Below, piece by piece: positions 1-4,449 of a stretch of 4,449 bases of DNA. The stretch lies in IMG/VR virus record IMGVR_UViG_2703718797_000011; one strand, 5' to 3'. How positions within the stretch are numbered: position 1 is the first letter of the stretch; each line of letters opens with the position of its first letter. This DNA is from a virus (taxonomy: Duplodnaviria; Heunggongvirae; Uroviricota; Caudoviricetes). The position numbers were made by a program, and so were the translations under genes. The notes beneath the pieces are model-generated. The model was given only the letters and a program-made list of their open reading frames with translations. It had not been told where the DNA came from and searched no databases.

Positions 1-564
1 GTTGACTGGTCATTTCCTGTACTGGTGGAAGATGTGGTGATGATGGGCCGCTATGGGCATATGGGTATGTTGCGTATCGCCAAAAAGAGGGATCGTCAAA
101 TTGTCACCGATGCGCTGGAACGTGTCGATATGGTGAATTTTCGCCATCGACAAATCGGCGAGCTTTCCGGTGGACAAAAGAAACGCGTCTTTCTGGCGAG
201 AGCGATTGCACAGCAGGGTGATGTGATCCTGCTGGATGAACCTTTTACTGGCGTTGATGTGAAAACCGAAGCCAAAATCATCAGCCTGTTGAGGGAGTTA
301 CGCGCGGAAGGCAAAACGATGCTTGTCTCAACGCACAATCTCGGATCCGTCACGACATTTTGCGATTATACGGTCATGGTCAAAGGCACCGTCCTGGCAA
401 GCGGGCCGACAGACACCACTTTTACAGCCGAGAACCTGGAGCTGGCTTTTAGCGGCGTACTGCGCCATGTCACACTTAACGGCTCGGAAGAAAGCATTAT
501 TACTGACGATGAACGCCCTTTTGTGGCTCATCGACCGTCAGCGGTGCAGAGGGAAGAAAGATGA
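1..564 (+). CDS. sitB: Metal (Mn2+/Fe2+) ABC transporter ATP-binding subunit, SitB/YfeB-type; 5'-truncated by the window edge (C-terminal ~187 codons present)
   Basis: The frame of track ORF 25..564 stays open back to base 1, so the GTG at 25 is not the real start and the gene begins upstream of the window. The translation carries the ABC signature LSGGQ, Walker B/D-loop [11 protein letters not shown] and H-loop STHN; Walker A is absent, as expected for a C-terminal fragment. The stop overlaps the next gene's ATG (ATGA at 561-564). The symbol is inferred from the two-permease operon architecture and phage-associated context; yfeB-type naming is equally possible. Confidence 0.85.
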
Positions 565-1418
565 ACGTGCTACTGGAACCCTTCAGCTATGAATATATGC
601 TCAATGCGATGTGGGTCTCGGCGATGGTCGGCGGTCTCTGCGCTTTCCTGTCATGCTATCTGATGCTAAAAGGCTGGTCGCTGATTGGCGATGCGTTGTC
701 GCACTCTATTGTCCCGGGTGTTGCGGGGGCATATATGCTGGGGCTTCCGTTTTCTCTGGGAGCCTTCTTTTCCGGCGGACTGGCTGCGGGCAGCATGCTG
801 TTTCTTAACCAACGCACCCGCTTAAAAGAAGATGCCATCATCGGTCTGATCTTCTCGTCCTTTTTTGGCCTGGGGCTGTTTATGGTGTCATTGAACCCGA
901 CATCTGTGAACATTCAGACCATCGTCCTGGGCAATATTCTGGCAATCGATCCGGCGGATATCCTGCAACTCACTATCATTGGCATTCTCTCGATCATCGT
1001 GCTTTTTTTCAAATGGAAAGATCTTATGGTGACCTTTTTCGACGAGAATCACGCCCGTGCTATTGGATTGCATCCGGGCAGATTAAAACTCCTCTTCTTC
1101 ACCCTGCTGTCGGTTTCGACCGTTGCGGCGCTGCAAACGGTTGGTGCCTTTCTGGTGATCTGTCTGGTGGTGACTCCCGGTGCAACAGCATGGTTGTTAA
1201 CCGATCGTTTTCCCCGCCTGCTCATGATTGCTGTAACTATTGGCAGTGTAACCAGTTTCCTCGGCGCGTGGGTCAGTTACTTTCTGGACGGCGCGACAGG
1301 TGGAATCATCGTGGTGGCGCAGACACTGCTGTTTCTTTTAGCATTTGTCTTTGCGCCCACCCATGGGCTTTTGGCAAATCGTCGGCGTGCGCATAAGGCG
1401 CTGGAGGATCGCTCATGA
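561..1418 (+). CDS. sitC: Metal ABC transporter permease, ABC-3 family (SitC/YfeC-type), 285 aa
   Basis: 285-aa strongly hydrophobic ORF with multiple predicted TM helices and the conserved ABC-3 permease motif [11 protein letters not shown]. The ATG overlaps the upstream ATPase stop (translational coupling), with a purine-rich SD-like stretch (GGGAAGAAAG) directly upstream. It is followed by a paralogous second permease, as in sitCD/yfeCD operons. Confidence 0.85.
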
Positions 1419-2272
1419 TGGCATTATTACTGGAGCCACTGCAGTTCACCTTTATGAGTCACGCACTGCTGATTTCACTGGTAGTTTCCATACCCTGTGC
1501 GCTGCTGTCGGTCTTTCTGGTCCTGAAAGGTTGGGCACTGATGGGTGACGCGATGAGTCATGCGGTTTTTCCTGGCATCGTGCTTGCCTGGATTCTGGGG
1601 TTACCTTTGGCTACAGGGGCATTCGTCGCCGGAGTATTCTGCGCGGTGGCGACGGGATACCTGAAAGACAACAGCCGAATCAAGCAAGATACAGTGATGG
1701 GGATTGTTTTTTCTGGCATGTTTGCCGCAGGTCTGATTTTGTATATTGCAGTCAAACCAGACGTACATCTTGACCATATTCTTTTCGGCGACATGCTCGG
1801 GATAACCATCGGCGATATAATCCAGACGATGATTATTGCCGGGCTGGTTACACTTGTTATTAGCGTAAAATGGCGGGATTTTTTGCTGTTCAGCTTTGAT
1901 TATCAACAGGCGCAGGTAAGCGGTTTGCATACGAGATGGCTGCATTATGGGCTGCTGTGCATGGTCTCTCTGACCATTGTGGCGACGCTGAAAGCGGTAG
2001 GTATCATTCTCTCCATTTCTCTGCTCATTGCGCCTGGCGCCATTGCGGTACTCCTGACACAACGCTTTCATATTGCGCTCCTACTGGCGACTGGCATATC
2101 GGTAATAGTGTCAATGACTGGTGTCTGGTTGTCCTTTTTTATCGACAGCGCACCAGCTCCGACGATTGTCGTCTTATTCGCGGTTTTGTTCATCATGACG
2201 TTTGCCGTTACCAGCATCAACGCACGCAAAAAGGGAAACTCCCATACACAGGATCTGTTATCACCCAATTAG
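1415..2272 (+). CDS. sitD: Metal ABC transporter permease, ABC-3 family (SitD/YfeD-type), 285 aa
   Basis: 285-aa hydrophobic ORF, paralogous to the preceding permease, with the equivalent motif GDAMSHAVFPG. The ATG overlaps the sitC stop (ATGA) and a GGAGG SD sits about 8 nt upstream. It is the last gene of the + strand operon, with a TAG stop at 2270-2272. Confidence 0.85.
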   Translation: MMALLLEPLQFTFMSHALLISLVVSIPCALLSVFLVLKGWALMGDAMSHAVFPGIVLAWILGLPLATGAFVAGVFCAVATGYLKDNSRIKQDTVMGIVFSGMFAAGLILYIAVKPDVHLDHILFGDMLGITIGDIIQTMIIAGLVTLVISVKWRDFLLFSFDYQQAQVSGLHTRWLHYGLLCMVSLTIVATLKAVGIILSISLLIAPGAIAVLLTQRFHIALLLATGISVIVSMTGVWLSFFIDSAPAPTIVVLFAVLFIMTFAVTSINARKKGNSHTQDLLSPN

Positions 2273-2363: not shown

Positions 2364-2576
2364 TCAACGCGGATCAAAACCGCCCCACCACGGCATATTC
2401 ATTCGCTTGCCATGCCCGAACATTTCAATCCAGCGATATTCTGCCTGGGTATGTTCACGCGCAATGAAGAACGTACAACCGGCTATCGCTCCGTAAGCCC
2501 AGTTTCCGGTAAAAAGACCAACCAGTATCTGCGCAGCCACAGCACAAAGTGCATGAAGTAAGGGGCTTATATCCAT
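2364..2576 (-). CDS. Hypothetical small membrane protein (70 aa): two predicted hydrophobic helices plus an aromatic/basic C-terminal tail; family not recognised
   Basis: The ATG is preceded by a canonical AGGAGG Shine-Dalgarno with a ~5-nt spacer. The N-terminal ~40 residues are hydrophobic (PLLHALCAVAAQILVGLF, WAYGAIAGCTFFI) and the C-terminus is Trp/Arg/Lys/His-rich (RWIEMFGHGKRMNMPWWGGFDPR). It starts 12 nt downstream of the 92-aa ORF stop on the same strand. GC is about 50 percent, unlike the AT-rich genes upstream of it. Confidence 0.6.
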   Translation of the reverse strand: MDISPLLHALCAVAAQILVGLFTGNWAYGAIAGCTFFIAREHTQAEYRWIEMFGHGKRMNMPWWGGFDPR

Positions 2577-2588: not shown

Positions 2589-2867
2589 TCAGCTCCATTC
2601 CCGAAGCGGTGTTTCCAGCTCCACGACATAATCAGAGAATACAGAAACATCAAACAAGTCATCAAGAATGCGAATGTTGACAAAATAACCATCATTCCGG
2701 ATACAGACAGGTTCTCCCTCTTCTGTTACCCCTGTTTCTGTGTAGGTGAAACCAATTTCATCAACTAACAGTTTATTCTGGAGGTCTTCATCTTCCGCCC
2801 AGCCAAGAGATGACAGGAAGGCCTTAAACTGCAGTTTGTCATGAAACTTCAAAGTTAAATCTTTCAT
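2589..2867 (-). CDS. Hypothetical small, strongly acidic protein (92 aa); family not recognised
   Basis: ATG with an AAGAGG SD-like sequence about 5 nt upstream. The start overlaps the stop of the upstream 220-aa ORF (ATGA at 2864-2867). About 20 Asp/Glu against about 9 Lys/Arg/His, including a DEDEDL patch, with no hydrophobic segment. AT-rich (about 40 percent GC) yet open for 92 codons. Confidence 0.6.
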   Translation of the reverse strand: MKDLTLKFHDKLQFKAFLSSLGWAEDEDLQNKLLVDEIGFTYTETGVTEEGEPVCIRNDGYFVNIRILDDLFDVSVFSDYVVELETPLREWS

Positions 2868-3526
2868 ACGACCTCTTTTAATTGCCTGTCATTTAATTCT
2901 TTATGCCATATGCGGAAATTGCGAATATGGCCAAACAGATGTCGTTCTCCAGTATTCGTCTGCCCTCCAAATCGGATATTTTTATCAGCGGTCACGCCAT
3001 TATATTCACAATAAACTTCATTAACCGCTTTACCATTTGTCACCACATGAAAGTGACCATCAGCTTTTGCAATACATCCAAATGTGGTTTTCTCTGCAAA
3101 TACATCTGTCGCTGCGCTATTAACATACGAGCCTGAAGGGTTTGACAGACTCATATATAACTTACCACTACCTCTGTTGATTGCTGCAATTGCTGATTGC
3201 CCGGTATTGGCTGCTGCTATATCCCACACGCGGGGTGCGGCGTTTGGTGCAATATCCCAGTTTTTATGAATCTCAAGTAAAAAAGTAAATGGTAACTTAT
3301 AAAGATTATTTCTGGTGGGGATACTAACCAAATCACTGGCTCTTGTCGTTGCGCTGCCTCCTGAAATAATAAATGATGATACACACGGCCCATTCTCTAC
3401 TTGTGGGGTGGCAAGATAAATATAGTCACCAGATACTGTTGCCCCACCCTGCAATAATTTCAAGCGTTTGCGTATCAATGTACGCATCGCCAAGAAAAGT
3501 TGTTGCACTACCATCATACTTATCAA
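2864..3526 (-). CDS. Hypothetical protein (up to 220 aa) with a putative ConA-like/LamG-type jelly-roll C-terminal domain; start codon uncertain; alternatively a frameshifted distal extension of the tail fiber
   Basis: A 220-codon open frame in roughly 42 percent GC DNA is unlikely by chance. The C-terminal motif NIRFGGQTNTGERHLFGHIRNFRIWHKELNDRQLKEV resembles the terminal strands of LamG/Laminin_G_3-type lectin domains (compare F-x-G-x-I-D-E-V-R-I-Y-x-x-A-L-S-x-x-E-I). The track start at 3526 is a TTG; in-frame ATGs lie at codons 4, 5 and 14, all inside the tail fiber coding region and none with an SD. Downstream of the tail fiber stop there is no ATG until about codon 125. The stop overlaps the ATG of the 92-aa ORF. 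Confidence 0.5.
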   Translation of the reverse strand: MISMMVVQQLFLAMRTLIRKRLKLLQGGATVSGDYIYLATPQVENGPCVSSFIISGGSATTRASDLVSIPTRNNLYKLPFTFLLEIHKNWDIAPNAAPRVWDIAAANTGQSAIAAINRGSGKLYMSLSNPSGSYVNSAATDVFAEKTTFGCIAKADGHFHVVTNGKAVNEVYCEYNGVTADKNIRFGGQTNTGERHLFGHIRNFRIWHKELNDRQLKEVV

Positions 3527-4449
3527 ACCGTATACGTAACCTTACCTGTCGTTCTGTTTTAAAACGGCATGAGGTTGTCACGTACTTGTTATCGCCTGAG
3601 ACATCAACTGACTTTGTTGCAGCAATTGATGCCATATTAATAGCCGAAGTTTGCCCAACCAGAGAATCGTTGCAGACAAACTTTCCATAAGTAAAACCAA
3701 AACTATCCGTCCCGGTTTCGGGCACATCCATGTTTGATGACTTCCCCCAGCTGGCTGGACTTTCCGAATTGAGCATGTAGTTCGTTCTTTGTCCCTCAAT
3801 AAGCAGGCCATCACACTCAAATCGCGGCTCATTAATTTCCGCCGTTTTCAGTTCGCCAGATTTGTTGATATATGTTGCCGTTGATGCGCGACTGAAATTA
3901 ACCTGTTTATCACTGGCGACCTGAACCACATCGTCACCAATAGCTATTTTTTTATAGCCCGGAGAAAAACCCGCAATCATATCCAGTGAATCGTTAAACG
4001 GTATCCACACATCAGGCAGCGGCGGCACTATATTCGCACAGGGCTCTGCAGTCACTTCCGCTGCGGCTTCTGCGCGGTCTGCCGCCTTTTCAGCTCGTGT
4101 CGCTGCCGACAGAGCCTCATCCTTTTTCTGCCCGGCCTTTGTTGCGTCTGCTGCGGCCTCCCGCGCTTTTGTGGTGGCGACTCCGGCATTTTCAGCGGCT
4201 GACTCTGCATTACGGCGGGAAGCCTCTTCACTGTCTGCGGAGGCTTCTTCTGACGCACGGGCATTTGTCTCTGAACGTTCTGCCGCTGTTGCTGCGTTTT
4301 GTGCGGCTGTTTTTGAAGAAGCTGCCGCTTTCGCGCTGTTACCTGCATTCGTCTCTGATGTTTTCGCCGCGTTCCTGGACGATGCCGCTGCTGTTTCTGA
4401 TTTCTTTGCTGCCGCTGCGCTCTGAGAGGCGGCTTCAGCGTTGCGTGCC
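3426..4449 (-). CDS. Phage side tail fiber protein (lambda Stf-like), 5'-truncated by the window edge; C-terminal ~340 codons present
   Basis: The frame of track ORF 3426..4055 remains open upstream of its GTG to the window end. The upstream part translates to an Ala/Ser/Thr/Glu-rich repeat tract (e.g. AAKTSETNAGNSAKAAASSKTAAQNAATAAERSETNARASEEA) that resembles the repeat shaft of lambda Stf-type tail fibers. The distal ~209 aa (TAEPCANIVPPLPDVWIPFNDSL ... EIIAGWGNSIW) is non-repetitive and AT-rich. The track reports only 3426..4055 because the repeat tract lacks ATG/GTG/TTG codons. Confidence 0.8.
   Translation of the reverse strand, partial: ARNAEAASQSAAAAKKSETAAASSRNAAKTSETNAGNSAKAAASSKTAAQNAATAAERSETNARASEEASADSEEASRRNAESAAENAGVATTKAREAAADATKAGQKKDEALSAATRAEKAADRAEAAAEVTAEPCANIVPPLPDVWIPFNDSLDMIAGFSPGYKKIAIGDDVVQVASDKQVNFSRASTATYINKSGELKTAEINEPRFECDGLLIEGQRTNYMLNSESPASWGKSSNMDVPETGTDSFGFTYGKFVCNDSLVGQTSAINMASIAATKSVDVSGDNKYVTTSCRFKTERQVRLRIRFDKYDGSATTFLGDAYIDTQTLEIIAGWGNSIW
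4056..4449 (-). repeat. Ala-rich low-complexity tandem repeat tract, coding (tail fiber shaft repeats)
   Basis: GC-rich GCN-dominated codon periodicity. Degenerate repeating peptide units (KTSETNA, SETNARASEEA, AEKAADRAEAAAE). The other frames give spurious Gln/Arg/Lys-rich and Ala/Phe-rich ORFs (track ORFs 4052..4348 - and 4171..4425 +). Confidence 0.6.

Follow-up and report, generated by a model that had tools for sequence, protein, structure and literature searches.

Overlapping tail fibre frames in a phage module with sit genes as probable halves of one phage 21-type stf gene, broken or mis-assembled

The two overlapping open reading frames (ORFs) at the fibre locus of the window, i.e. 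the whole 4,449-nt stretch of Caudoviricetes DNA that was analysed here (IMG/VR record IMGVR_UViG_2703718797_000011), are very probably two halves of a single side tail fibre gene (stf) from a lambdoid prophage of the phage 21 type, which carries sitABCD beside its tail genes. This gene would either have been broken by a net loss of 137 nt or have been mis-assembled, and we assign this reading, which is based on sequence comparison, a probability of about 0.92. Split fibre genes are a kind of lesion that is already known, and no recoding event needs to be invoked.

In this explanation, the replacement of 139 nt by the dinucleotide TT at positions 3454-3453 would have removed residues 445-490 of Stf and moved the downstream part of the gene into the +1 frame. 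The upstream frame would then continue for nine wrong codons until it meets a chance TGA at 3428-3426. The frame of the downstream half would happen to be free of stops for 29 codons before the junction, which would account both for the apparent overlap and for the lack of a proper start in the 220-aa ORF. No translational mechanism would be involved.

Layout of the locus and its intact relatives

The window contains a sitB/sitC/sitD block (25-2272, plus strand) that is convergent with fibre genes on the minus strand. In Escherichia phage 21, phage Perceval and E. coli LF82 the gene order is J, (lom), stf, a 92-aa ORF, a 97-aa membrane protein and then sitDCBA on the opposite strand; the window's module shares with phage 21 the order J, stf, 92-aa ORF, 97-aa membrane protein and sitD/C/B. 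The genes for the 92-aa and 97-aa proteins lie downstream of the fibre within the window, while J and lom are seen upstream in LF82, phage 21 and Perceval, as is typical for the position of an Stf. Because the same arrangement is annotated in these three relatives, we regard the fibre as a phage 21-type Stf and, as judged from this annotation, the sit genes (iron/manganese transporter) as phage cargo beside the fibre genes. The start of stf lies beyond the end of the window. The features are as follows.

From 25, plus strand: sitB (listed ORF, 5' end outside the window; named after the annotation of LF82, phage 21 and Perceval)
561-1418, plus strand: sitC (same annotation)
1415-2272, plus strand: sitD (same annotation)
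2364-2576, minus strand: 70-aa ORF, apparently what remains of a putative 97-aa membrane protein (gene 24 of phage 21), from comparison with relatives
2589-2867, minus strand: conserved 92-aa ORF, function unassigned (phrog_1361 match, E 3e-42; phage 21 gene 23); its ATG overlaps the stf stop (ATGA)
3526-2864, minus strand: 220-aa ORF, first candidate start TTG 3526
Window end to TGA at 3428-3426, minus strand: upstream fibre ORF, ending ...TQTLEIIAGWGNSIW
2864-3451, minus strand: native Stf coding sequence, residues 491-686 (QGGATVSGDYIYL...KEVV) and stop (identity to relatives; phrog_1419 match)
3426-3452, minus strand: out-of-frame tail of the upstream ORF, AGWGNSIW and TGA; the same bases read QGGATVSGD in relatives
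3453-3454, minus strand: junction 1, TT in place of 139 nt of relatives (L001 6996-7134)
3455-3541, minus strand: chance-open +1 frame (29 codons) over native fibre coding sequence, holding TTG 3526 and ATG 3517, 3514 and 3487; no homology
3455-4448, minus strand: native Stf coding sequence, residues 114-444 and the first base of codon 445 (nucleotide identity and protein alignment)

The flanks of junction 1 agree with E. coli LF82, E. coli NC101 and phage Perceval at 100% identity, namely over 995 nt upstream (4449-3455) and, in a base-by-base comparison, over 1085 nt downstream (3452-2368). The window sequence at the junction (within 3400-3500) is GAAATTATTGCAGGG, and the protein alignment gives the native join in the relatives as ...TQTLEI-[S/N]MTGGAAGRITARVRKDKTTGWIFAEATIQAIDGELKIGSQIQYSP[G/E]-QGGATVSGDYIYLATPQ.... 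The net loss of 137 nt corresponds to 46 lost codons and one gained base, and thus to a change of frame. The preliminary description of this DNA had proposed a seamless continuation at the stop, where GWGNS would be followed directly by GDYIYL. This join is not ancestral, as homology to the relatives switches frame 25 nt further upstream, at 3454-3453. Because the downstream half is shifted to +1, both the ending IAGWGNSIW of the upstream ORF and the first 25 residues of the 220-aa ORF are out-of-frame junk.

An alignment to homologous fibres had been suggested to see whether an intact version in a single ORF exists. Such a version does exist and is in fact the rule. Of 5,426 complete E. coli genomes searched, 576 have one place that covers at least 80% of the fibre region, and likewise 576 contain both flanks with extra bases in between. 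Each of the matches listed consisted of two parts, and its span in the genome exceeded that of the query by 137 nt. In LF82, phage 21 (where it is annotated as 'side tail fiber') and Perceval, stf is a single ORF of 686 aa, and eight more contigs carry one unbroken fibre ORF of 653-687 aa. Even a diverged allele (L006) is still a single ORF (673 aa). A tblastn search with the C-terminal 357 aa matched 203 phage records over at least 80% of this length, and every one of the phage rows listed was a single aligned piece; identities were 98.9-100% for phage 21, Perceval, ev207 and mEp460. Exact copies of the 686-aa protein are on record from at least 1000 contigs. Homologues with two separate genes throughout, which would have spoken for a genuine gene pair, are therefore the opposite of what was seen, as the relatives have one ORF.

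The closest known system is the Stf of phage 21 itself (CPT_21_22 / UMO75437.1, OL657228), which is the same gene and to which the window pieces are 99% identical at the DNA level. Perceval, ev207 and mEp460 have stf genes identical to that of phage 21, with the window pieces being 100% identical to Perceval. While the phage 21-type stf is a single ORF of 686-688 aa, the copy in the window lacks residues 445-490 and is frame-shifted. Its frame is not continuous, with the stop at 3428-3426 and the frame change at 3454-3453, which identifies it as a disrupted copy.

The domains of the intact protein show what the junction interrupts.

Residues 1-131: PF08400, prophage tail fibre N-terminal (227 bits in identical relatives; residues 1-113 lie outside the window)
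Roughly residues 113-251: Ala-rich stretch, read as a rod
Residues 329-529: spike-fibre domain NF048003 (56.8 bits, profile positions 1-181)
Residues 560-681: probable LamG-like tip

NF048003 is the NCBIfam phage head spike fibre domain, with a 182-position profile and a curated cut-off of 36 bits. The 220-aa ORF of the window reaches 29.6 bits and covers only profile positions 147-181, and the upstream fibre ORF gave no match to this profile. As judged from these profile matches, the domain is interrupted in the window. The head spike fibre Rcc01080 of the Rhodobacter capsulatus gene transfer agent (GTA; PDB 6TB9) aligns unbroken over intact residues 297-543, the missing residues 445-490 included (E 3e-10). 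It is a distant homologue of the interrupted domain only, and the domain sits on the capsid there, whereas it belongs to a siphovirus side tail fibre here. This homology to a solved GTA fibre domain contradicts the idea that the relatives have gained the 139-nt segment by insertion.

The stretch 2864-3451 (minus strand) encodes the end of the spike-fibre domain and the probable LamG-like tip. A lectin-like tip had already been proposed in the preliminary description and is plausible, although the score stays just below the Pfam gathering threshold of PF13385 (Laminin_G_3; 27.6 bits), the 220-aa ORF reaching 26.7 bits (E 7e-6) and the intact protein 24.6 bits. For the C-terminal 195 aa, a single-sequence structure prediction gave a pLDDT of 34, too low to be of use.

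The overlap, recoding and internal initiation

The overlap itself was described correctly at the outset. Two frames on the minus strand stay open across the fibre stop at 3428-3426, the +1 frame being open from 3541, where it follows an in-frame stop. The overlap amounts to 101 nt when counted from TTG 3526 and to 116 nt when counted from the opening of the frame. Of the in-frame candidate starts after the stop, TTG 3331 is codon 66 and ATG 3154 is codon 125, as had been noted, while GTG 3229 is codon 100 and not about 98. We also found the GGAGG about 26 nt upstream of TTG 3331, and the ATGs in the overlap (3517, 3514 and 3487) are indeed without a Shine-Dalgarno sequence in the preceding 20 nt. 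Nevertheless, the overlap is unremarkable and no longer than expected by chance. Only 29 codons upstream of the true junction have to be free of stops (P about 0.25 for random codons), and other parts of the intact gene contain longer open stretches in the +1 frame, of 158, 89 and 59 codons.

Programmed or efficient +1 frameshifting in the overlap, as suggested in the preliminary description, would join both ORFs into a shorter functional fibre. A shift anywhere in 3541-3429 would yield the fusion, a G-rich stretch GGGUGGGG (3449-3442) lies upstream of the stop, and UGA followed by C is a weak stop context in E. coli. This setting resembles prfB (RF2), in which a 0-frame UGA followed by C is also accompanied by a continuation in the +1 frame. 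In prfB the stimulatory element precedes the shift codon by about 3 nt; the G-rich stretch of the window, however, ends 10 nt before the UGG codon. The stop context AUC-UGG-UGA-C does not allow re-pairing in the P site, as tRNA-Trp on UGG cannot re-pair on GGU. No CUU-UGA or similar slippery motif was found in 3541-3426, so that the window differs from prfB in lacking a slippery codon of the CUU-U type, in lacking a correctly spaced internal Shine-Dalgarno sequence and in having a layout that occurs in no homologue. The two-frame layout is private to the window and hence not conserved. Moreover, a +1 shift could not restore the native protein, because 46 codons are gone from inside a conserved domain and the fusion would still be short of these residues. 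We therefore rejected a programmed shift and consider a frameshifted functional fibre extremely unlikely, although sequence alone always leaves room for spontaneous frameshifting or reinitiation at a low level.

It is likewise very unlikely that the C-terminal part is a separate gene that is translated by internal initiation, either from TTG 3331 or from the ATGs in the overlap, with the tip acting as a second subunit. Gene callers do place a 155-aa ORF at TTG 3331 in genomes with a broken fibre, and the GGAGG mentioned above might be taken as its ribosome-binding site. Yet 26 nt is too distant for a Shine-Dalgarno sequence, TTG 3331 is an internal Leu codon of the continuous ORF in intact relatives, and the 155-aa variant is on record only beside other, independent disruptions. 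In the relatives the later candidate starts fall within the domain, in a continuous ORF. In the curated annotation of phage 21 the neighbouring genes have marked ribosome-binding sites, and no such site is given within stf. As for the earlier starts, residues 1-25 of the 220-aa ORF match nothing, and homology to PHROG (from residue 26) and NCBIfam profiles sets in only at residues 26-30.

The third suggestion of the preliminary description, a split gene caused by an indel or a sequencing error, was right in kind, given the single ORF of the relatives. The lesion is, however, the replacement of 139 nt by TT and not a 1-bp indel at 3420-3440. A single-base indel or base-calling error in that interval would account for the +1 relation of the frames, but the window is base-identical to the relatives from 3452 down to 2368 and the replacement at 3454-3453 is the sole difference, which leaves this option with a next to negligible likelihood.

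Other known sources of altered fibre genes were also considered and rejected. Invertible or shufflon-type switching of tail fibres would involve an invertase and crossover repeats, neither of which is present. A diversity-generating retroelement is not in keeping with the lack of a reverse transcriptase and with the variation being confined to a handful of sites. An intron or intein does not fit, as the missing segment is ordinary coding sequence that is homologous to a solved domain.

A second loss and the origin of both losses

A second private loss was found 1.1 kb downstream of junction 1. At 2367/2366 the window lacks 81 nt (27 codons, in frame); they make up the very end of the coding sequence for the 97-aa membrane protein, whose stop codon is retained immediately after the gap. 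The window sequence at this junction 2 (within 2330-2400) is CCGCGTTGAAAA. Neither junction 1 nor junction 2 was found in the 5,426 complete E. coli genomes, the GTDB representatives, the JGI metagenomes or IMG/VR. In exact-protein look-ups, none of nine versions of the 220-aa ORF with different starts (196 to 220 aa long) was on record, and the same holds for four reconstructions of the truncated fibre of 453 aa and for its 340-aa in-window fragment. For the 70-aa ORF, exact matches on record were limited to gene fragments truncated at contig ends.

Both losses may have arisen in assembly, polishing or consensus calling, at places where reads of two slightly different copies of the fibre module meet, in which case the real gene would be intact. 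This possibility is a sub-case of the explanation given above, as it concerns the origin of the lesion and not the identity of the two ORFs; whether the loss is real or an artefact, the overlapping frames are accounted for in the same manner. We rate its chances as about even. Co-resident prophages or mixed strains could be the source of the two copies, the module being present in up to 7 copies per genome. In its favour, two losses that are private to the window, one of 137 nt net and one of 81 nt, fall within 1.1 kb of sequence that otherwise matches several genomes and a viable phage at 100% identity. Neither junction was found in the collections searched, and the expected truncated proteins are not on record.

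The position of the boundaries also points in this direction, or else to an unusual event of recent date. Among 12 alleles only 23 of 1861 columns are variable, and all four boundaries of the two losses (reference positions 1334, 1472, 2558 and 2640) are such sites; the window reads T at each of them. The boundary sites are neighbouring differences between the LF82-type and the FDAARGOS_536-type alleles, with the base pairs of alternatives G/A, G/A, A/T and T/C in the order of the positions given. In addition, short-read contigs of eight other samples end at the left boundary of the second loss (seven at reference position 2557, one at 2558), which shows that assemblers branch there. Neither direct or inverted repeats nor hairpins were found that bracket either missing segment, and microhomology at the second loss does not exceed 2 nt (TG). 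Because no direct repeat or hairpin brackets the segment, no simple slippage mechanism is at hand for a real deletion, and nothing in the way of microhomology or hairpins accounts for a biological one. On the other hand, we know of no specific assembler behaviour that drops a stretch between variant sites and writes T there, and T at reference positions 1334 and 1472 was seen in no other allele.

On balance we lean slightly towards an assembly or consensus artefact over a loss in the cell, because a biological deletion is not expected to 'know' which sites vary between alleles, whereas a consensus of two co-resident copies does. It may be speculated that both losses are real and were made in vivo at mismatches between paired, slightly different module copies in the same cell, for example by breakage between two heteroduplex mismatches followed by untemplated joining. 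We regard this as very improbable. If true, it would be a route by which prophage tail fibre modules lose precise internal segments.

Related lesions and consequences

As the sequence stands, we infer that only a 453-aa fragment of Stf would be made, ending ...LEIIAGWGNSIW. Besides the N-terminus for tail attachment and the Ala-rich rod, this fragment would include about 60% of the spike-fibre domain; the receptor-binding tip would be missing.

The same stf gene is also disrupted elsewhere. Five loci show a loss of 1 nt in an A5 run at reference position 1440. In another locus (L014) the product is shortened to 513 aa with no indel, which is probably due to a nonsense change, and in a further one (L019) the stf homology begins just after a fragment of an IS66-family transposase. 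Our literature search for phage 21 with sitABCD or its side tail fibre returned nothing.

The best known counterpart is the stf of lambda PaPa, also a broken lambdoid stf gene, in which the N-terminal part forms one ORF and the C-terminal part is left as an orphan ORF without its own start. These two halves are orf-401 and orf-314; the annotation of phage 21 describes the N-terminal part of its Stf as similar to lambda orf-401. The lesion of lambda PaPa is a single-base change. No residues are lost there, whereas 46 codons are gone as well from the copy in the window. The distal domains also differ, the window having the domain that resembles the GTA spike fibre and the probable LamG-like tip. 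According to the statement in PMC12617516, which cites Hendrix & Duda 1992, the frameshift mutation that splits stf in lambda PaPa has the consequence that side fibres are not made. The same statement describes lambda side fibres as speeding adsorption but being dispensable. Lesions such as that of lambda PaPa stf can persist because side fibres are dispensable. By analogy, the phage represented by the window would be without working side fibres, like lambda PaPa, if the sequence is taken as it stands.

The biological weight of the finding is small, as it concerns a copy of the well-known phage 21-type stf that is broken or mis-assembled. Its use is rather for the interpretation of similar loci. 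When an ORF in a prophage tail module has no start and overlaps the preceding stop, a comparison with intact alleles should come first, since the real lesion can sit upstream of the stop and far exceed 1 bp. In prophage regions that are present in several copies, deletion boundaries at sites that distinguish alleles are a warning sign for assembly artefacts.

A second loss and the boundaries of both

Besides the replacement of 139 nt by TT within the side tail fibre gene (window 3454/3453), the sequence lacks 81 nt at window 2367/2366, an in-frame loss of 27 codons. This second loss is private to the window sequence and affects the 3' end of phage 21 gene 24, where the remaining 70 amino acids lead directly to the original stop codon:

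2364-2576, (-) strand: 70-aa ORF, a shortened form of the 97-aa putative membrane protein with two transmembrane domains encoded by phage 21 gene 24

The junction found no match in complete E. coli genomes, GTDB representatives, JGI metagenomes or IMG/VR. The two losses have four boundaries in all (reference positions 1334 and 1472 for the first, 2558 and 2640 for the second, counted along the LF82 locus from L001:5663), and each of the four lies on an allele-variable site. Such sites are scarce among the known alleles (23 of 1861 columns), and the window carries a T at all four. In eight other samples, short-read contigs break off at reference position 2557 or 2558. This coincidence with allele-variable sites, together with the contig ends, suggests that both losses may be an assembly or consensus artefact within a multi-copy prophage module.

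The fibre gene in other loci

An A5 run at reference position 1440, which falls within the segment absent from the window's fibre gene, is short by 1 nt in five loci (L013, L016, L017, L018 and L020), three of them on Logan contigs, one on a metagenome scaffold and one in the complete genome of strain PAR. The loss splits the fibre gene in two and makes gene callers predict a 155-aa ORF that starts at the TTG corresponding to window 3331. Either a frameshift allele with this 1-nt loss is in circulation, or a homopolymer error has recurred.

In LF82 (L001:5663-7723) and NC101 (L023:163-1867), RefSeq/PGAP labels the fibre gene as a pseudogene with 'missing C-terminus' and annotates it only up to nt 1705. 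The ORF runs through 686 codons without interruption in both, and the identical 686-aa protein is annotated as intact elsewhere; the flag looks like an annotation quirk.

Neighbouring frames and the sit operon

The start of a conserved 92-aa ORF (family phrog_1361) overlaps the fibre stop in an ATGA at window 2864-2867 on the (-) strand, which suggests that it may be translationally coupled to the fibre gene. Its place is the one occupied by tfa on the lambda map.

Where the fibre is Ala-rich and repetitive (AAxxSExxA-like; window 4060-4449, (-) strand), several frames are open on both strands. They are by-products of this composition rather than genes; two examples are:

4171-4425, (+) strand: 84-aa ORF opposite the Ala-rich part
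4052-4348, (-) strand: 98-aa ORF, an extra open frame over the same part

The tail-fibre module faces an uptake operon:

25-2272, (+) strand: sitBCD, iron/manganese uptake, convergent to the tail-fibre module

This region differs from NC101 and LF82 by 3-4 SNPs. The isolated phages 21 and Perceval place sit convergent to the tail-fibre module in exactly the same layout, so the sit operon in the window is cargo borne by the phage.
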